A stretch of 64,000 bases of DNA, taken from the IMG/VR virus record IMGVR_UViG_3300031951_000010. The stretch is one strand, 5' to 3'. Position 1 is the stretch's first letter; each line of letters starts with the position of its first letter. Origin of the DNA: a virus. A program made the position numbers and the translations under genes. Of the stretch, positions 1,586-63,635 are shown in pieces. Below the pieces are notes generated by a model, which was given only the letters and a program-made list of their open reading frames with translations, was not told where the DNA came from and made no database searches.

Positions 1586-1620
1586 AAAAAAACAGAGAGA
1601 AACTTAGTGGCTCCTCTCTG
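1586..1620 (-). terminator. Attenuator terminator upstream of tRNA-Met/Asn
   Basis: CAGAGAGGAG-CCACTAAG-TTTCTCTCTG followed by T7 on the minus strand. Confidence 0.85.
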
Positions 1621-1649
1621 CGTGAAAACAATGATGCGAATTCTTTCGA

Positions 1650-1709
1650 TCACTGATCAGGAGGTCCACTAAAGGCCCACATATTATTATTCAAATTCAT
1701 ATTAAACAT
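1650..1709 (-). CDS. Met/Asn-rich attenuator leader peptide MFNMNLNNNMWAFSGPPDQ
   Basis: 3 ATG and 5 AAT in the first 10 codons; 3' end complementary to the terminator 5' arm; directly upstream of tRNA-Met-like and tRNA-Asn. Confidence 0.8.
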   Translation of the reverse strand: MFNMNLNNNMWAFSGPPDQ

Positions 1710-1800
1710 GTTTAATCACTATTCTTGCGATGAATGTAATCCACCTGCTTATTTATACGACGGCTTTGATAAAAAAGTTTCACGATGCCAATATTTTTAA

Positions 1801-3136
1801 AAAGTAACCTGCAAAAATTCCCCATCTGCTAGTCGGTGGGGATGAATTGCAGTAATTAGAAAATATTCTACTATTTTTCTAAAACATATAGGTGATAGTA
1901 AATATTAACTGTAAAAGAGACTTATATGCTAAAGGCATATAAGTTTTTGATAAAACCCACAAAGGAGCAAATTGAGATGTTTGAAAAACATTTTGGTGCT
2001 ACTAGGTTTGTCTATAACTGGGGATTAGAACAAAAAACAAAATCTTATCAAGAAGGGAAAAAGACATTGACTTTTCTTGGATTGGGTCCAGAACTTGTTA
2101 AGTTTAAAAAAGAAAACATCTGGATGAAGGAAGTAAATAGCCAATCACTATTGGCTTCTCTGAAAAATTTAGACAATGCCTATACTAGATTCTTCAGAGA
2201 AAAGAAAGGATTTCCTAAATTCAAATCAAAATATAATCCAAAACAATCCTTCCAGTGCCCTCAACATTGTTCTGTAGATTTTGATAACTCTGAATTAACA
2301 ATCCCAAAGATTAAAAATATCAAAACTATATTCCATAGACAATTTGAAGGGGATATCAAAACAGTAACTATTTCTAGGGTTCCTTCTGGCAAATACTATG
2401 TTTCAATTCTAGTGGAAGATGGCAAAGAATTACCAATTAAATCTAAGCTAACTAGAAACAATGCTGTAGGCATTGACATGGGATTGAAATATTTTGTAGT
2501 TACTTCAGATGGAGAAAAAATTGCTAATCCAAAGTATTTCAGGAAATCCGAAGAAAGACTTGCAAGAAAACAAAAGAAATTAAGCAAGAAAAAGAAAGGG
2601 AGCAATAATAGGAATAAACAAAAACAAAAAGTAGCGAAGCTACATGAAAAAATAGCTAATCAAAGAAAAGACTTTCTACATAAAGTATCTCATAAAATAG
2701 TTCACAAGAACCACGGAACGATTTGTGTTGAGGATTTGTGTGTTAAAGGGATGGTCAGAAATCATAAATTAGCTAAATCAATATCTGATGTAGGATGGGG
2801 AATGTTCTATAACTTTTTGAAATATAAATCAGACTGGTATGGAAAGAATTTTCTTGATATTGGACAATTTGAACCTTCTAGTAAAATGTGTTCAGTTTGT
2901 GGTAATATTAAATCAGATTTGACATTATCTGATAGAGAATGGACTTGTGAGAGATGCAACAACAAACACGATAGAGATATCAATGCTTCTATTAACATTC
3001 GAAACATGGCATTCACTGCTCAGAATTTGATAAGATGCATAGGGTTGGAACAACCCGAATCAACGCCTGTGGAATTGTTAGGTTACTAACGACTACGAAG
3101 CAGGAAGCCCCACCCTTTATGGGTGGGGTAGTTCAC
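1801..3136 (+). mobile_element. IS200/IS605-family (IS1341-type, tnpB-only) element
   Basis: Left-end hairpin CCCCATC...GGTGGGG and right-end hairpin CCCCACCC-TTTAT-GGGTGGGG ending TTCAC; TTTAA immediately 5' of the left end; no tnpA. Confidence 0.85.
1926..3089 (+). CDS. tnpB: TnpB RNA-guided endonuclease
   Basis: N-terminal MLKAYKFLIKP HTH, RuvC motifs GIDMG / VEDL / DRDINAS, and CSVC...CERC zinc finger. Confidence 0.97.
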   Translation: MLKAYKFLIKPTKEQIEMFEKHFGATRFVYNWGLEQKTKSYQEGKKTLTFLGLGPELVKFKKENIWMKEVNSQSLLASLKNLDNAYTRFFREKKGFPKFKSKYNPKQSFQCPQHCSVDFDNSELTIPKIKNIKTIFHRQFEGDIKTVTISRVPSGKYYVSILVEDGKELPIKSKLTRNNAVGIDMGLKYFVVTSDGEKIANPKYFRKSEERLARKQKKLSKKKKGSNNRNKQKQKVAKLHEKIANQRKDFLHKVSHKIVHKNHGTICVEDLCVKGMVRNHKLAKSISDVGWGMFYNFLKYKSDWYGKNFLDIGQFEPSSKMCSVCGNIKSDLTLSDREWTCERCNNKHDRDINASINIRNMAFTAQNLIRCIGLEQPESTPVELLGY

Positions 3137-7017: not shown

Positions 7018-7713
7018 TTATACATATCGGGACTTTAAGATCACATTAGATACGTAAAGATCACCAGAACAACGACTAATCTCATAAGCATAATCATTAA
7101 ACCCCAAAACCTGAGGGGAATAAATAGAATCTAAACGCCTTGCAAATTCTTTCACGCAAGAAGGATTACTCACATATGTCATAAAACCCCGATCATAACA
7201 AGAATCAAACCCCGAAAGATAAGGATCGGGATCGCCATGGGAAGGGAAAGGAGACATAAAGCAAATATGAGAGTCATAAGCAGCAACCCTGCAAACATTT
7301 TCAGTCGCCTTGAAAGAAGATATATATAAATCATCCAAAGGAGCAATATATAATTCAAAAGAATAGTCACTTGGGCAATTTATGCGAATCCCTCCATCTT
7401 TGCGACAATCTAACAAACGCGAAAAAGGCACAGAGAATAATTGACTTTGACCCATGGGGCGCTCCATAGAACCGAAGTTATGAACAGACACGATTTCATC
7501 CAAATCATAATCACTTTCGGAAAGATCATTTAAACTTGTTACAAACAAATCACTATGCAAATAATGAACACCATAATGACGAATCATATCAATACAATTC
7601 ATAGACATGTAAGGCGCTGGGCGATAATCATAACTAATAAATCCCGATTGATTTGCCAACACACTACCCAAAACACCATTCATGTGCGCACCATTTACCA
7701 TTTGTGACTCCAC
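7018..7713 (-). CDS. Tandem paralog 2 of an unknown family
   Basis: Same block; YEISRCSGDLYVSNV. Confidence 0.8.
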   Translation of the reverse strand: MESQMVNGAHMNGVLGSVLANQSGFISYDYRPAPYMSMNCIDMIRHYGVHYLHSDLFVTSLNDLSESDYDLDEIVSVHNFGSMERPMGQSQLFSVPFSRLLDCRKDGGIRINCPSDYSFELYIAPLDDLYISSFKATENVCRVAAYDSHICFMSPFPSHGDPDPYLSGFDSCYDRGFMTYVSNPSCVKEFARRLDSIYSPQVLGFNDYAYEISRCSGDLYVSNVILKSRYV

Positions 7714-24480: not shown

Positions 24481-24490
24481 TCAGAATTGA

Positions 24491-24580
24491 AACTTTTTTG
24501 ATATTCTGATCGTATTATAATTGACGGTACGTGTGGTATTGTTATTTCATTTGTAGGGGGCGCAAGCCCCCTTTTCCTTT
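24491..24580 (+). ncRNA. sRNA cassette 1 (promoter + 32 nt + GCAA terminator)
   Basis: 33-nt conserved head, variable body, GGGGGCGCAAGCCCCC + T-run. Confidence 0.6.
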
Positions 24581-28181: not shown

Positions 28182-28194
28182 TTTCTGATCGTGC

Positions 28195-28285
28195 AACTTT
28201 TTTGATATTCTGATCGTATTATAATTGAGATAACGAACTGTATCTTATTTTCAAGTCGAGGGGGCGCAAGCCCCCTTTTTCCTTT
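28195..28285 (+). ncRNA. sRNA cassette 2 (32-nt body)
   Basis: Head and terminator hairpin identical to cassette 1. Confidence 0.6.
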
Positions 28286-28895: not shown

Positions 28896-28904
28896 TTTTC
28901 TGGA

Positions 28905-29010
28905 AACTTTTTTGATATTCTGATCGTATTATAATTGGAACACAAAAGAGAAAAAGATAAATTTCGACGAGATGAGAGCAAGCTGGGGGCGCAAGCCCCC
29001 ATTGCTATTT
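28905..29010 (+). ncRNA. sRNA cassette 3 (47-nt body)
   Basis: Identical head and hairpin. Confidence 0.55.
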
Positions 29011-31148: not shown

Positions 31149-31171
31149 ATAATGATCGGATATATAAGACA

Positions 31172-55580: not shown

Positions 55581-55928
55581 ATGAGTGAAGATTTTTTGAA
55601 CGGTTTTGCTATCGGTGCTGTTGCGATTATAGTTATTTGGGTTTGCTCGGCAATTAAGGCGAGTATTCCAAAACCTACAAACATGGGGTGGCTCGATGGA
55701 TCGGGTGATTGGATTGAGGTGGTTCGTATCGGTCACTCAGGAGTGACTGTGCGACATTGTGGGTATAATTCACGTAATTCACACTGGACATTTAGGCGCT
55801 GTGCAGAAGATGCTGGCTGGCCTCTTTCCAAGATGCTTGATTACCTGGGCCTTCCCGATGAAAAGACACTCAAGGAAGCTGACATGACCATGGGTGAATG
55901 GCTTTCACAAAAAAATAAAAATTCTTGA
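55581..55928 (+). CDS. Membrane-anchored hypothetical protein (paralog of 56430)
   Basis: CA.DAGW...M.D.LGLPDE..LKE..MT.GEWL. Confidence 0.7.
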   Translation: MSEDFLNGFAIGAVAIIVIWVCSAIKASIPKPTNMGWLDGSGDWIEVVRIGHSGVTVRHCGYNSRNSHWTFRRCAEDAGWPLSKMLDYLGLPDEKTLKEADMTMGEWLSQKNKNS

Positions 55929-55956
55929 AACTTTTCAAAGGTGATCGCCGTATAAC
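55927..55956 (+). promoter_or_regulatory. Promoter variant of an attenuated tRNA operon
   Basis: GAAACTTTT...GGTGATCGCCGTATAA; CGYCGTATAA also precedes the leaders at 1709(-) and 61725. Confidence 0.7.
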
Positions 55957-55996
55957 AAAAGAACATACACAAAGCAAAAGCTTTAAGGACACAATT

Positions 55997-56065
55997 ATGA
56001 CTCGCCGATATCTTTCACTGCTAGGACTCTTATCGCTTTCTCTTGAGAAAGCGGCGATTAGCTGA
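55997..56065 (+). CDS. Leu-rich attenuator leader peptide MTRRYLSLLGLLSLSLEKAAIS
   Basis: AAGGA SD; 7 Leu codons (6 CTN); 3' 20 nt complementary to the terminator 5' arm. Confidence 0.82.
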   Translation: MTRRYLSLLGLLSLSLEKAAIS

Positions 56066-56086
56066 TAGATTTTGCGATCAGTGTTT

Positions 56087-56127
56087 AATCCCCGATTTCT
56101 CTCAAGGAGTCGGGGATTTTTGTTTTT
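56087..56127 (+). terminator. Attenuator terminator upstream of tRNA-Leu genes
   Basis: AATCCCCGA...TCGGGGATT followed by TTTGTTTTT. Confidence 0.88.
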
Positions 56128-56138
56128 GCGTTTCACAT

Positions 56139-56223
56139 ACCGCTCTGGAGTAGCCAAACTTGCTACAGGCAACAGTCTTAGAAACTGTCTCTTTTCTGGG
56201 TTGGAATCCCAGGGGCGGTACCA
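56139..56223 (+). tRNA. Atypical tRNA-Leu(TAG)-like RNA
   Basis: ACCGCTC/GGGCGGT-A-CCA; ACAGT-CTTAGAA-ACTGT; T-loop TTGGAAT; GTAGC/GCTAC D-stem; no long variable arm. Confidence 0.7.
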
Positions 56224-56274
56224 ATATTGACAATAGAATAGAGGAAAGAGAAAATAGATTTTCGAGTGATAAAT

Positions 56275-56361
56275 GCGGACGTGGCGGAATTGGTTTACGC
56301 GCTACTTTGAGATGGTAGTCCCCGATTGGGGGTGTGGGTTCGAGTCCCACCGTCCGCACCA
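56275..56361 (+). tRNA. tRNA-Leu(GAG)
   Basis: Canonical type II cloverleaf, loop TTGAGAT, CCA. Confidence 0.93.
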
Positions 56362-56840: not shown

Positions 56841-57966
56841 ATGGCAACACGAGGCTGGGAGCCCACAGACTACAATCCGAACATTATTCGTGATGTTTCT
56901 AATCGAACCATTGAAGAATTTGAAAACGATATTCGATTTTCTCGTGACTGGGGCTTCGTACAAAGTTATGGCCTTGAAAGAGCTACTCAGCTTCTGGGTC
57001 GAGCCCCAGATACCCGAGCAGTTGAATTCTTTAATGAGTTCATGTCTCAGTATTCCCGAGCCGTCGAGCTTATGGAACAGCTAGGCATCAAAAAGAAGAT
57101 TCTGAAAAAATTCAAGCGATATCCGATTGCTCCTTGTCTTTATGCTGATTTGAATGAAGAATGTAATGATGTATTGACGGGATCGAAAATCGGTGGAATT
57201 CCTGACCAGCGCCAAGCTGGAAGTGCGCTGTCTTCAAGGCAATATTGTTAGTCGCATCAAGGCAGCTTGGCCCAAGGATTCAAATGGTAAATATATGATA
57301 TTCGTTGGCCAAATCAAAGTGCCTGGACACATCGTCGCTCCCTGGGATTATATCATGGGCGAGAAAATAGACAAGTATGGAAATTATGATCGACCTCTTA
57401 ATGGGTTTAGCCACGGGCAGAACATTTTTGAACAAGAGCATACTTATTTAATTTTTCGCAGTGCGCATGCACCAAATTTTGGAGACATGTTCGATTGTGC
57501 GATGGTGCATTCTCGCTTCGATGCCAATGAATCGGTAAAGGAAGATAAATATATTGAGGCTGTGAAAAAAGCTATTCCGCAGTATCGCCGAAGCAACATG
57601 GAAGACAATTGTCCAATTTGGAGTGATCGGTGTCACACGCTAACTGATTACCGAGTTAGCATGACGCTTGATTTAATTCGCGACTTTGAATGGGCAGGTG
57701 GGTTTGAAGGCAATGTATTTGATTACATAGATTCGTGGAGAGAACACTTCGGTTCTTATGGCACAATTCAAATTTTTGGCGATCCAAGATCACAACAGAC
57801 CCCACAGCGATTTGCTGAAACACGCACTGTTTACCGTCCTCGAATGATGCGCCCGTGGCTTGGAATGACAGACCTAAAGCACGATTACACTTGGCAATAT
57901 AATTTTTGTCACGAAGGTTTTCTGAGTGAATCAATTATGGGCAAAGTTGATGGAAGCTGTACCTAA
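56841..57966 (+). pseudogene. YwqG/DUF1963-like gene split by a frameshift (56841..57251 + 57193..57966)
   Basis: GSKIGGIPD in one frame continues as WPK...MIFVGQI in the +1 frame. Confidence 0.5.
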
Positions 57967-58616: not shown

Positions 58617-58917
58617 CGGGGCGTGGCGAAATGGCAGACGCAGGGGACTTATAAAATGAGCACTTGTTTGTGAAAGCTGCAAGTGAATGCAATCAAATTC
58701 GGTGAAACCTTAACAGTTAGGCTGATGGCAATACCGAGCCAAGCTAACTCAAAACAGAGTTAGAAGGTGTAGAGACTAGATGGTTGCTGCCTAAGTCGAA
58801 AGATATGGCAAAGGTATAGTCCAGACCACAAAATCCTTTGGGATCGTAGTGAAAGCTATAGTGGTATGAAAATCCCTTAGTAGCAATACTGTGTGGGTTC
58901 GAGTCCCACCGCCCCGA
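58617..58917 (+). tRNA. tRNA-Leu(TAA) with group I intron
   Basis: Exons 58617-58650 and 58869-58917 rebuild loop CTT|AAAA; CCA not encoded. Confidence 0.9.
58651..58868 (+). ncRNA. Group I intron (trnL/IC3-like), 218 nt, no ORF
   Basis: P AAATTCGGTGAAAC, Q AATACCGAGC, R GTGTAGAGACTAGATGG, S AAGGTATAGTCC; terminal G; inserted after U34. Confidence 0.9.
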
Positions 58918-58946: not shown

Positions 58947-59465
58947 TTGTGTGCTTTTAGTATAAGAATGTTTGTGTCACGTTTGCAAAAATATACCCTA
59001 GAGGAGATAAAAGAAATAATATCTAAATCAAAATCTTATGCTGAAGTAATTCGATCTATTGGTTTAATTCCTGCTGGTGGAAATTACAAAACATTGCAAA
59101 GTTTTGTACATGAATACCGAATTGATACTTCGCATTTTCTGGGCTCAGCTTGGGGGCGAGGAAACCAATTGGATTATCTCCACAATAGCAATAGAAAATC
59201 ATTAGAAGATGTTTTTTCGGGAAAAGTAGCTTATAAATCAAGCCATAAATTAAGGCTTCGGCTGATTAAAGAAGGATATTTTGAGCATAAATGCTATAAA
59301 TGTGGACTAAAAGAGTGGCAAGGACACGAAATACCCTTGGAATTAGAGCATATAAATGGAGATCATTGTGATAACAGTCTCGAAAACCTCATTATTCTTT
59401 GCCCCAACTGTCATGCTCAAACAGAAACTTATGCTGGTAAAAACAAAAAAAGACGATTAGGTTAA
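58947..59465 (+). CDS. Free-standing HNH endonuclease
   Basis: CYKC...LELEHINGDHCDNSLENL..LCPNCH. Confidence 0.9.
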   Translation: MCAFSIRMFVSRLQKYTLEEIKEIISKSKSYAEVIRSIGLIPAGGNYKTLQSFVHEYRIDTSHFLGSAWGRGNQLDYLHNSNRKSLEDVFSGKVAYKSSHKLRLRLIKEGYFEHKCYKCGLKEWQGHEIPLELEHINGDHCDNSLENLIILCPNCHAQTETYAGKNKKRRLG

Positions 59466-61597: not shown

Positions 61598-61724
61598 ACT
61601 CCAAAAACATTCTCATTGAGGGAGAATTTAATCCCTCAATGAGAAAAAACAAAAAACTGCTAACAAAAAGCAGGTGATCGTCGTATAATAAGAGAAGAAA
61701 CTGAAAAGCACAAAGAGCTATATT

Positions 61725-61847
61725 ATGAATCATCTCTTATCGACGACAATATGTGGAACAACAGGAACCTCAACAAGAGGAATCCTTTCCCTTGGCGTTA
61801 TCGGCAAGGATAGTGATTCTGATTCAGGAGAACCCATCGAATCGTAG
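61725..61847 (+). CDS. Thr/Gly/Ser-rich attenuator leader peptide (40 aa)
   Basis: MNHLLSTTICGTTGTSTRGILSLGVIGKDSDSDSGEPIES; ACA x4 and GGA x4; end complementary to the terminator arm. Confidence 0.78.
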   Translation: MNHLLSTTICGTTGTSTRGILSLGVIGKDSDSDSGEPIES

Positions 61848-61867
61848 CTTTACTGTGATTACAGAAC

Positions 61868-61908
61868 AAAGAGGCTCGATTCGATAAGATCGAGCCTCTT
61901 TTCTTTTT
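61868..61908 (+). terminator. Attenuator terminator upstream of tRNA-Gly/Ser/Thr
   Basis: 13-bp stem AAAGAGGCTCGAT/ATCGAGCCTCTTT followed by a T-rich tail. Confidence 0.9.
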
Positions 61909-62037
61909 AGATATGATGTCTGGGAAGAGAAAGATCGAATATTGAAAATTTCATACAGGTATAGATATAAAAGTGTTAGGGGGTGTTGGATCGATCTTTG
62001 ATCGCAGGCCTCACCCCCTTGATCGAGACACATTTTC

Positions 62038-62111
62038 GCGAGATTGGTATATGGGTTGTGCCCTAGCCTTCCAAGCTAGAGAAAAGGGTTCGAATCCCTT
62101 ATCTCGCTCCA
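62038..62111 (+). tRNA. tRNA-Gly(TCC)
   Basis: Cloverleaf, loop CTTCCAA, U73, CCA. Confidence 0.93.
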
Positions 62112-62162
62112 ATTTAAGACACATTTCTTTGTGCTGCCAATGGGCAGCTTTCAAAAGAAAAC

Positions 62163-62249
62163 GGATGGGTGACAGAGCGATCTATTGTAGCGGTCTTGAA
62201 AACCGCCGTGCCAAAAGCACCGTGGGTTTGAATCCCACCCCATCCTCCA
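62163..62249 (+). tRNA. tRNA-Ser(TGA)
   Basis: Type II, loop CTTGAAA, CCA; U73 is atypical for Ser. Confidence 0.9.
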
Positions 62250-62276
62250 TTTTGTAACAAAATCATAAAATTCAAA

Positions 62277-62310
62277 GCAGGTGTAGCTCAGTGGTAGAGC
62301 GCCCGCCGCG
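62277..62310 (+). pseudogene. Orphan tRNA 5' half
   Basis: GCAGGTG-TA-GCTC-AGTGGTA-GAGC; acceptor pairs 6/7 with CTCCTGC at 62869-62875. Confidence 0.65.
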
Positions 62311-62347
62311 AAGGTTGATGGTTGCAATATCGATAAATAGATTATGT

Positions 62348-62764
62348 ATGGCAATAACAAAATACAAAGGAGCCGTCGGGCTAACTAATGTAATGGCCTG
62401 TCTTGTCAATCAAAAAGCAAAAATCTTTGTTCCAATAGACGAAGACTGTCAATATGACCTGGTGGTAGATTATCAAAATTATCTTTACAGAGTGCAAGTT
62501 AAATATGCTGAGGCAAAAAATGGCAAGATCGTTGTAAAGACGCGCTCAACGAATAACTATTGTGAAATTCGTTATACTAAAGATCATTTTGACGTGATTG
62601 CTGTTTGGGACAATGTTGGCAAAAAAGCATATTTTATTTCATCGAATTTAATCACAGAAGGAATGACGGAAATGACCTTGAGATTAGATGCACCAAAAAA
62701 CAATCAAACTAAAAACATAAGATTGGCTCGTAATTATGAGCAATTTAATGCTGCGGTCGCATAG
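62348..62764 (+). CDS. PD-(D/E)XK endonuclease (I-Ssp6803I-like)
   Basis: TK.KG...P......YDLVVD....YRVQVK...Y....FD..AV; 3' end overlaps tRNA-Thr. Confidence 0.85.
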   Translation: MAITKYKGAVGLTNVMACLVNQKAKIFVPIDEDCQYDLVVDYQNYLYRVQVKYAEAKNGKIVVKTRSTNNYCEIRYTKDHFDVIAVWDNVGKKAYFISSNLITEGMTEMTLRLDAPKNNQTKNIRLARNYEQFNAAVA

Positions 62765-62832
62765 TGGTCGATTGCACCTCTCTTGTAAAGAGGAACTCCA
62801 CACCGTGGGTTCGAATCCCACCCGTAGCTCCA
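62750..62832 (+). tRNA. tRNA-Thr(TGT)
   Basis: GCTGCGG/CCGTAGC, loop CTTGTAA, CCA; 11-nt variable region. Confidence 0.88.
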
Positions 62833-62845
62833 TTTTTCGCACATA

Positions 62846-62876
62846 TGTGTCAGGGGTTCGAATCCCCTCTCCTGCT
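62846..62876 (+). pseudogene. Orphan tRNA 3' half
   Basis: TGTC-AGGGG-TTCGAAT-CCCCT-CTCCTGC-T. Confidence 0.65.
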
Positions 62877-62946: not shown

Positions 62947-63545
62947 ATTGCTGTGAGCTAAATCAATTGACACAGCATGATGAAACCAAAATCATCTAAA
63001 AACAATAAGGTGCTCCATATACGTCTGGGAAAGATAAATTAGACGTGGACACACTGTGATGTGGACTAATCACAGCGCACTGGGGCATGTGTGCAAGCCC
63101 GAAAAGCCTATCTTTACTGATATAGTTAAAGAGAAAGAGCAGAGAGTTAAGGCTTAAAATAAACTCCATGCGTTCGTAAGGATGAACTCAAAGACGAGTT
63201 CAGTTATGACTAGGATACGAGAGGAGGGAGGCAATGAGTTTCTCTCCTCTCCCCGACAAAGCGATTTCCGACTGCTCATCGGAGAAGTGATCTAGTAAAA
63301 CACTCAGAAAAACACTAGCGTAGGAAATGCGTTAATCCCTGATTTTTTATCGGTTTTTAGAGACAAAAAACTGTTCGTATAGGGCTTGCGGTAAGCCTCT
63401 TGTTTTAGCTAGGTGATCCTGTATGTAAAAACCAAGCGGATGGAACAAATCAATTTGTTTTCGCGAGCAAATGATCCATTGACTTTGGGGAACAGCGTAA
63501 GAACGTTTCGCCATGAGGCTTTGAGCAAAGTCTCGTTCCCCAAAA
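62947..63545 (+). ncRNA. Large (~600 nt) highly structured ncRNA
   Basis: Own promoter motif whose +1 is not an ATG; no credible ORF; more than 12 consecutive hairpins; ends GGGGAAC...GTTCCCC before tRNA-Asp. Confidence 0.7.
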
Positions 63546-63558
63546 ATAAAAAGATTCT

Positions 63559-63635
63559 GGGTATGTAGTTCAGTTGGTTAGAGCACCTGCCTGTCACGCA
63601 GGAAGTCGCGAGTTCAAGTCTCGTCATATCCGCCA
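63559..63635 (+). tRNA. tRNA-Asp(GTC)
   Basis: Canonical cloverleaf, loop CTGTCAC, G73, CCA. Confidence 0.95.

Follow-up and report, generated by a model that had tools for sequence, protein, structure and literature searches.

A 64,000-nt stretch of viral DNA (IMG/VR record IMGVR_UViG_3300031951_000010; hereafter the window) carries, at positions 1781–1407 on the minus strand, what is probably a single transcription unit (unit 1) in which a promoter, a short leader open reading frame (ORF) and a switchable terminator precede a tRNA(CAU)-like gene and tRNA-Asn(GUU) (Table 1). We propose, with a probability of roughly two in three, that unit 1 is a ribosome-mediated attenuator of the trp/his style that gates the expression of tRNA genes. 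The elements are present in the required order, the composition of the leader and its complementarity to the terminator are non-random, and the same design occurs three times in the window; for the three-unit system as a whole, we consider the attenuator reading somewhat more probable than for unit 1 taken by itself. The initial annotation, made from the sequence alone, had described a Met/Asn attenuator in this region. The terminator, leader, promoter variant, tRNA-Met-like gene and tRNA-Asn were all found where it had placed them on the minus strand, and every computational test run (codon enrichment, mutually exclusive helices, ribosome geometry and parallel units) agrees with its reading of a leader-peptide attenuator.

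The Unit 1 Leader Is Enriched in Asn Codons

Apart from the MFNMNLNNNMWAFSGPPDQ ORF, no ATG-initiated ORF is present from the −10 box to the terminator, and stop codons interrupt the remaining two frames. An ORF and codon count recovered the leader proposed at 1709–1650, with three ATG and five AAT among its first ten codons. The 18 codons after the start comprise five Asn codons, all of them AAT, and two internal Met codons. Stop-free dinucleotide shuffles of the ORF, a control for its high A+T content, give P = 7 × 10−4 for the Asn content (5/18) and P = 4.5 × 10−4 for the combined Met and Asn content (7/18); compared with windows of the long ORFs of the phage, the leader enrichment has P = 5 × 10−4. 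The Asn part of the reading is solid. The leader ORF is presumably translated. The Shine-Dalgarno (SD)-like GUGAU ahead of its ATG forms a duplex of −6.2 kcal/mol with the anti-SD tail, which lies within the best ~16%–21% for the window.

The Leader and the Terminator Are Predicted to Form Mutually Exclusive Helices

The pairing of about 14 bp that the initial annotation had proposed between the 3′ part of the leader and the 5′ arm and loop of the terminator was recovered just as proposed: 1672–1658 (segment 2) can pair with 1620–1604 (segment 3) in an antiterminator of 7 + 4 + 3 = 14 bp. The energy of this duplex corresponds to z = −3.34, with none of 300 dinucleotide shuffles of the upstream 70 nt as good, and when the 58 terminator-like hairpins of the window are ranked by z-score, units 1 and 3 occupy the first two places. 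Folding of the alternative structures gave the antiterminator as the predicted minimum free energy (MFE) structure of the nascent RNA as long as the terminator lacks its 3′ arm, and the terminator form when a ribosome footprint is placed at the stop codon. The terminator hairpin alone has a folding energy of −17.3 kcal/mol and its stem is directly followed by TTTTTTTGTTT; the opposite strand has no U-tract. The energies of the antiterminator form (−26.2 kcal/mol) and the terminator form (−29.0 kcal/mol) are similar, and the order of folding is therefore predicted to decide the outcome.

The position of the ribosome was modeled by placing a footprint of ~30 nt at each leader codon. In this footprint model, a ribosome on codons 1–11 leaves the antiterminator intact, and a ribosome from codon 12 onward, or on the stop codon, masks segment 2 such that the terminator forms. 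All seven control codons are within codons 3–10, upstream of segment 2 and in the antiterminator-permissive zone. The stop codon lies 6 nt past segment 2 and 29 nt ahead of the terminator stem; therefore, a terminating ribosome cannot block the terminator directly, which favors competition between hairpins. Direct ribosomal block of the terminator, as in pyrBI, was considered and rejected, with the stop codons of all three units located 21–29 nt upstream of the respective stems.

Each of the three terminators has an SD-like purine run in its 5′ arm or loop (1613–1619, GAGAGGAG; 56101–56106, AAGGAG; 61868–61873, AAGAGG). Segment 2 of unit 1 carries CCUCC, which is complementary to the SD-like run, and no start codon follows any of the three runs.

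The Same Design Occurs in Two Further Units for Other Amino Acids

Units 2 and 3, both on the plus strand, encode the leader peptides MTRRYLSLLGLLSLSLEKAAIS and MNHLLSTTICGTTGTSTRGILSLGVIGKDSDSDSGEPIES, respectively. Residues cognate to the downstream tRNAs make up 7 of the 21 residues of the unit 2 leader and 22 of the 39 residues of the unit 3 leader (empirical P < 5 × 10−6 each, from windows of real ORFs). When the composition of each leader is compared with each tRNA set, the diagonal of the resulting matrix is enriched 4.5-, 4.2-, and 2.4-fold over background, and no off-diagonal value exceeds 1.3-fold; Fisher combination of the binomial P values of the three units gives ~2 × 10−9. The match extends to codons, since the anticodons encoded downstream directly read 19 of the 26 Leu, Thr, Gly and Ser codons in leaders 2 and 3, compared with 12.5 expected (P = 0.007, conditional on the amino acids). 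This codon preference points to decoding, rather than to a function of the peptides.

In the footprint model, the unit 2 antiterminator forms only with a ribosome on codons 1–12, which hold five of the seven Leu codons. In the untranslated nascent RNA of unit 2, the 5′ arm of the terminator is predicted to be unpaired and the terminator can form, consistent with a 1:2 protector feature. The unit 3 antiterminator spans the stop codon (z = −3.25).

A search pipeline was used in which tRNA clusters called by ARAGORN were scanned for a terminator at most 420 nt upstream and then for an ATG-initiated ORF of 10–70 codons ending at most 70 nt upstream of, or at most 10 nt into, the terminator hairpin, with a binomial test against the amino acids of the cluster. 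Applied to the window, it returned exactly units 1–3 and no further tRNA cluster (P = 0.0035, 0.00094 and 0.00062 with canonical tRNAs only). Applied to an unrelated 595-kb phage (LR756511.1; 60 tRNAs by Rfam), it found such a unit at none of 27 tRNA clusters. The design is therefore neither an artifact of the pipeline nor a general trait of phage tRNA arrays. The 10 kb beyond the window contains five further tRNAs and no additional leader unit.

Table 1. Coordinates of the features of the three leader/tRNA units
Feature	Position	Strand	Basis
Unit 1: promoter-like element, class B variant GAAACTTTTTT...CCGTCGTATAAAT = GAAACTTTTTTATCAAAGCCGTCGTATAAAT	1781–1751	minus	motif count
Unit 1: presumed 5′ untranslated region (UTR), ~35 nt, SD-like GUGAU 8–12 nt ahead of ATG	1744–1710	minus	inferred
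Unit 1: leader ORF MFNMNLNNNMWAFSGPPDQ*, 19 codons + TGA	1709 (ATG) to 1650 (TGA)	minus	ORF scan, codon enrichment
Unit 1: control codons 3–10, AAT ATG AAT TTG AAT AAT AAT ATG	1703–1680	minus	ribosome footprint model
Unit 1: segment 2, antiterminator 5′ strand UUAGUGG-A-CCUCCUG, inside codons 13–17	1672–1658	minus	MFE, shuffles
Unit 1: internal hairpin enclosed by the antiterminator, beginning in the last sense codon and stop (1655–1650)	1655–1629	minus	in all predicted folds
Unit 1: segment 3, terminator 5′ arm and loop, partner either segment 2 or the 3′ arm	1620–1604	minus	predicted folds
Unit 1: intrinsic terminator, 12-bp stem (1621–1592), 6-nt loop, then UUUUUUUGUUU to 1582	1621–1582	minus	terminator scan, folding
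Unit 1: non-canonical tRNA(CAU)-like gene, 74 nt, encoded CCA	1565–1492	minus	ARAGORN 80% threshold, MFE
Unit 1: tRNA-Asn(GUU), canonical	1481–1407	minus	ARAGORN; Rfam tRNA, 70.3 bits
Unit 2: promoter, Leu-rich leader (55997–56065), terminator (56087–56118), tRNA-Leu(UAG)-like (56139–56223), tRNA-Leu(GAG) (56275–56361)	55927–56361	plus	
Unit 3: promoter, Thr/Gly/Ser/Asp-rich leader (61725–61847), terminator (61868–61901), tRNA-Gly(UCC), tRNA-Ser(UGA), split tRNA, tRNA-Thr(UGU)	61668–62832	plus	
tRNA-Asp(GUC), counted as a cognate of unit 3, beyond the unit 3 range	63559–63635		

Proposed Mechanism and Alternative Explanations

That unit 1 regulates tRNA synthesis is inferred from its anatomy and from the statistics above. 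In the mechanism that we propose, a ribosome would begin translation of the 19-codon leader before its transcription by RNA polymerase is complete. With an ample supply of Asn-tRNA (and perhaps of Met-tRNA), the ribosome would reach the TGA at 1652–1650 and mask segment 2; segment 3 would then pair with the 3′ arm, the terminator would form, and transcription would end before the tRNA genes. Slow decoding of AAU (or AUG) would stall the ribosome in codons 3–10, leaving segment 2 free to capture the newly made segment 3, such that no terminator forms and the polymerase continues into both tRNA genes. These two phage tRNAs would be made on demand. In this mechanism, the terminator would be efficient, the tRNA genes would lack a promoter of their own, and read-through would respond to decoding speed. 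A more specific proposal, that the units are codon-specific feedback circuits, each inducing exactly the phage tRNA genes that read the slowly decoded codons and so providing tRNA on demand, appears doubtful. If it is true, an on-demand supply could answer depletion of host tRNAs, e.g. by anticodon nucleases or host shut-off.

Several observations weigh against attenuation. In unit 1, unlike in the trp attenuator, nascent RNA that is free of ribosomes is predicted to fold into the antiterminator, and no clear 1:2 protector hairpin is seen. The SD of the unit 1 leader is only moderate, SD use being weak generally in this phage. The AT-rich 27-nt spacer ahead of the tRNA-like gene may contain an unrecognized promoter, and a promoter followed by a short RNA and a terminator is a common module in this phage, as three other cassettes show. 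Most other tRNAs of the phage, canonical tRNA-Met included, have no such unit: Leu(CAA), intron-containing Leu(UAA), Ser(GCU), Thr(GGU), canonical Met(CAU), Arg(UCU) and Lys(UUU) are located behind ORFs or class A promoters (see below) and are without leaders. There is no covariation signal, the strain copies being near-identical, and diverged relatives carrying the unit were found neither in IMG/VR nor in JGI metagenomes, nor via neighboring proteins, nor among cultured phages. Met alone, with 2 of 18 codons in the unit 1 leader, is not significantly enriched (about P = 0.08 by a binomial estimate with a background of 0.027), and the CAU RNA, which may be of the elongator Met or the Ile2 type, may not be a Met acceptor. 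Of the Met/Asn sensing originally proposed, the Asn part is upheld by its enrichment; the Met part stays tentative, given a marginal excess of ATG codons and a non-canonical CAU RNA whose assignment is putative.

The features of unit 1 might instead belong to an independent small-RNA or small-protein gene (promoter, ~150-nt RNA and terminator) located beside tRNA genes that are expressed from an unrecognized promoter or by leaky read-through, with no sensing of codons. The promoter family GAAACTTTTTT...GATCG..TATAAT also drives three short, terminated, ORF-less RNAs in the window, tRNAs elsewhere in the phage are transcribed straight from class A promoters or lie behind ORFs, and the spacer at 1591–1566 is AT-rich, all of which would be in keeping with such a gene. 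We nevertheless regard it as unlikely, because it leaves unexplained why each of three leaders favors the amino acids of its own tRNAs, with units 2 and 3 favoring even the exact codons, and why the 3′ end of the ORF is complementary to the 5′ arm of the terminator far beyond shuffled sequences. The codon match ties the units to decoding but leaves the mechanism unspecified, and leader translation could control the tRNAs by Rho loading, by RNase processing or precursor stability, or by ribosome-coupled polymerase pausing, rather than by competition between the 2:3 and 3:4 hairpins. The internal hairpin at 1655–1629 and the purine-rich, SD-like 5′ arms of the three terminators have no assigned role and could have one in such schemes. 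Unit 1, however, combines a strong intrinsic terminator with a statistically exceptional antiterminator, and the distance of 21–29 nt between the stops and the terminator stems in the three units makes ribosome occlusion of the pyrBI type unlikely; control of this kind is, if anything, slightly less plausible to us than an independent gene.

A chance arrangement, in which an ORF with AAT repeats in an AT-rich intergenic stretch happens to lie beside an unrelated terminator, has in its favor that the first 30 nt of the unit 1 leader are 90% A+T, that AAT is among the few stop-free codons composed only of A and T, and that unit 1 has no diverged homologs showing selection. It is made very improbable by the composition-keeping, stop-free shuffles, by the complementarity that no shuffle equaled, by the repetition of the design in two more units with different amino acids, and by the lack of false positives in the control phage. 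Ribosome-mediated attenuation is the reading that we prefer for all three units.

Promoters and Short RNA Cassettes

The motif CGYCGTATAA occurs three times in the window (0.14 expected), once in front of each of the three leader/tRNA units. The GAAACTTTT element of the unit 1 promoter is common to unit 2 and to the three small-RNA cassettes, and the leader units and these non-coding cassettes share the variant GAAACTTTT...GATCG/CCGTCG...TATAA, which supports the view that the variant is a real promoter. A sigma-70 reading of the unit 1 promoter was rejected; the consensus scan was empty at 1781–1751 and the GAAAC-TATAA spacing is unfit.

The cassettes (24489–24575, 28193–28280 and 28903–29005, all on the plus strand) begin with nearly the same promoter sequence, GAAACTTTTTTGATATTCTGATCGTATTATAATTG (with GCAAC as the first letters at 28193), and contain an identical GGGGGCGCAAGCCCCC hairpin. 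Their bodies of 32–47 nt are unrelated and contain no ORF, and a class A promoter follows immediately after each. The class A motif, AAAATCCCC...GATCGGATATATAA (also given as AAAATCCCCNNTTTT...GATCGGATATATAA), occurs 19 times on the plus strand compared with 0.2 expected (e.g. at 31154, 36121, 40176, 59894 and 62930). An ATG is usually positioned 2–5 nt past the class A TATAAA, which suggests that the mRNAs of many phage genes are leaderless or near-leaderless.

Long, ORF-free, hairpin-rich stretches with class A promoters are also present in the tRNA region, at 62947–63545 (plus strand) and, beyond the window, at 7170–7810 of contig L084, and are possibly large structured non-coding RNAs. Rfam at gathering score gave no match in 62947–63545 when run on the window.

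Noncanonical tRNA-like Genes in and around the Units

The tRNA(CAU)-like gene of unit 1 is called neither by ARAGORN at its default settings nor by the Rfam tRNA family (RF00005); at an 80% threshold, ARAGORN assigns it as tRNA-Met(cat). Its MFE structure is a cloverleaf with the anticodon loop UUCAUAU, a compact, atypical D arm (a 5-bp stem and a 3-nt loop) and a G1-U72 pair. The first RNA of unit 2 is similarly unusual: this 85-nt tRNA-like RNA (56139–56223) has a perfect acceptor stem, CCA, the T loop UUGGAAU and the anticodon loop CUUAGAA (UAG, Leu), but is without a long variable arm, is missed by default ARAGORN, and gives a partial, 25-bit match to the Rfam tRNA family. The UAG-like RNA stands first behind the Leu leader, in parallel to the odd CAU RNA behind the Asn leader. 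If the proposal of codon-specific feedback circuits is true, these shape-variant first RNAs might escape anticodon nucleases.

Two further genes in the window have interrupted tRNA sequences. The anticodon loop of a tRNA-Leu(UAA)-like gene (58620–58910, plus strand), not called by ARAGORN, is split by a group I intron (Rfam Intron_gpI, 58640–58843, 58.2 bits), with an HNH-type ORF downstream (58947–59465). Cyanobacterial and plastid tRNA-Leu genes likewise contain a group I intron in the anticodon loop. The apparent split tRNA of unit 3 (62280–62876, plus strand) consists of a 5′ half, GCAGGTGTAGCTCAGTGGTAGAGC..., and a 3′ half, ...GGGGTTCGAATCCCCTCTCCTGC, ~530 nt apart; the insert contains an ORF of the PDDEXK_5 family with tRNA-Thr(UGU) nested in it.

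Phage Context, Strain Variation and Searches for Relatives

The window belongs to a circular-looking contig of ~421 kb (ENA) of an uncultured phage that encodes rIIA/rIIB, a sigma factor and NrdG. Neither strand contains an ORF of at least 60 amino acids overlapping 1357–1925. The next protein gene past tRNA-Asn encodes a PcfJ-like protein (1356–169) and has a promoter-like sequence of its own (GATCG...TATATAATG); unit 1 therefore appears to end at tRNA-Asn. On the other side, and divergent from unit 1, is an IS605-type tnpB (1926–3089, plus strand; domains HTH_OrfB_IS605, OrfB_IS605 and Cas12f1-like TNB), with a CCCCA...TGGGG hairpin in its upstream end (1800–1925). The tnpB gene is kept in all strain contigs that reach its position, and a homologous tnpB is present in a related phage contig (L028).

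Over 574 nt, unit 1 is identical in 12 strain contigs except for one single-nucleotide polymorphism, G>A at 1511. It affects the T loop of the CAU RNA and, by our reading, exchanges one purine for another at tRNA position 57. The switch from leader to terminator is invariant in all 12. Units 2 and 3, compared in four strain contigs, show few differences, located only in the 5′ UTR and spacer and none in the ORF or switch.

The searches for diverged relatives covered sequence patterns and neighboring proteins. Scans of IMG/VR with the promoter, tRNA-like and class A patterns returned only chance matches in coding DNA or unrelated tRNAs, and a scan of JGI metagenomes with GAAACTTTT-N10-CGNCGTATAA returned 41 loci, none with a tRNA within 1.2 kb downstream. 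An IMG/VR contig with an rIIA relative (L004; 38% identity) has tRNAs, but these follow promoter-like TATAAT sequences and neither a leader ORF nor a switchable terminator intervenes, so that leader-plus-terminator units are absent ahead of them. Contigs encoding relatives of the GH108 lysozyme (53%–59% identity; L027, L028 and L031) and of the PcfJ-like protein (L005, L090 and L091) have no tRNAs. No cultured phage is close (rIIA identity about 33% or less, no DNA match), and the flanking protein at 57193–57966 has no homolog outside the strain cluster.

Past the start of the window, downstream of the PcfJ-like gene, a row of genes (contig L074, 5225–9188) encodes a Tad6-like protein, a NUDIX protein, a methyltransferase, a PTH2 peptidyl-tRNA hydrolase, a peptide deformylase and an RNA ligase, and forms a cluster with links to translation and possibly to the repair of tRNAs. 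If the proposal of codon-specific feedback circuits is true, the peptidyl-tRNA hydrolase and RNA ligase encoded there would fit a theme of translation maintenance or tRNA repair. Roughly 6.4–9.5 kb past the end of the window (contig L084, 12928–16029), proteins with WGR/PARP and Macro domains are encoded close to each other, which suggests an ADP-ribosylation writer/eraser pair.

Significance and Relationship to Known Regulatory Systems

Proposed reasons for the tRNAs of large phages include compensation for codon usage, replacement of degraded host tRNAs and counter-defense against tRNA-cleaving systems. The units described here would bear on this question. If the reading is true, the virus would monitor decoding in the host cell codon by codon and supplement only those tRNAs that run short, and the units would be compact (about 160–215 nt) natural sensors for Asn, Leu and Thr/Gly/Ser decoding. 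Such units could also mark functional tRNA sets in genome annotation and help to identify odd tRNA-like genes. LR756511.1 and L004 are likewise large phages with many tRNA genes, but without leader units.

Known RNA families, including the T-box, amino-acid leaders and PyrR, were rejected by Rfam search. The Trp, His, Leu, Thr and Phe leaders and the T-box gave no match at gathering score in the window, nor any with E values up to 10 or 5 around the units; the only Thr_leader match, of 22.7 bits, was discarded, being on the wrong strand and over a terminator. A full-text search of the literature yielded no description of tRNA genes under leader-peptide attenuation. To our knowledge, leader-peptide attenuation is known for amino-acid biosynthesis and synthetase genes, and not for tRNA genes or in phages.

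T-box riboswitches resemble unit 1 in that both are terminator/antiterminator switches that report the tRNA status of one amino acid. In contrast to the translation-dependent switch proposed here, T-boxes bind uncharged tRNA via a specifier codon and the T-box sequence, independently of translation, and they control synthetase, biosynthesis and transporter genes, whereas unit 1 has an ORF with many control codons. The closer likeness is to the enterobacterial attenuators (trpL, hisL, leuL, thrL, pheL, ilvL, and pheM of pheST). As in these, unit 1 has a short ORF with clustered codons of the amino acid to be sensed, the 5′ arm of its terminator can alternatively pair with a segment that overlaps the end of the ORF, and this segment is predicted to be masked by a terminating ribosome. 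Multivalent leaders are also found among them, thrL sensing Thr and Ile and the ilv leader sensing Ile, Leu and Val. Unit 1 differs from the trp-type attenuators in having no predicted 1:2 protector hairpin, and the quantity sensed would be the supply of the very tRNA that is being made. It differs from the enterobacterial attenuators in general in that tRNA genes, rather than biosynthetic or synthetase genes, are located behind the switch, and in its phage setting. What is new here would be the target, tRNA genes, and the giant-phage setting. The outcome would be a feedback by which a slowly decoded codon turns on its own tRNA.

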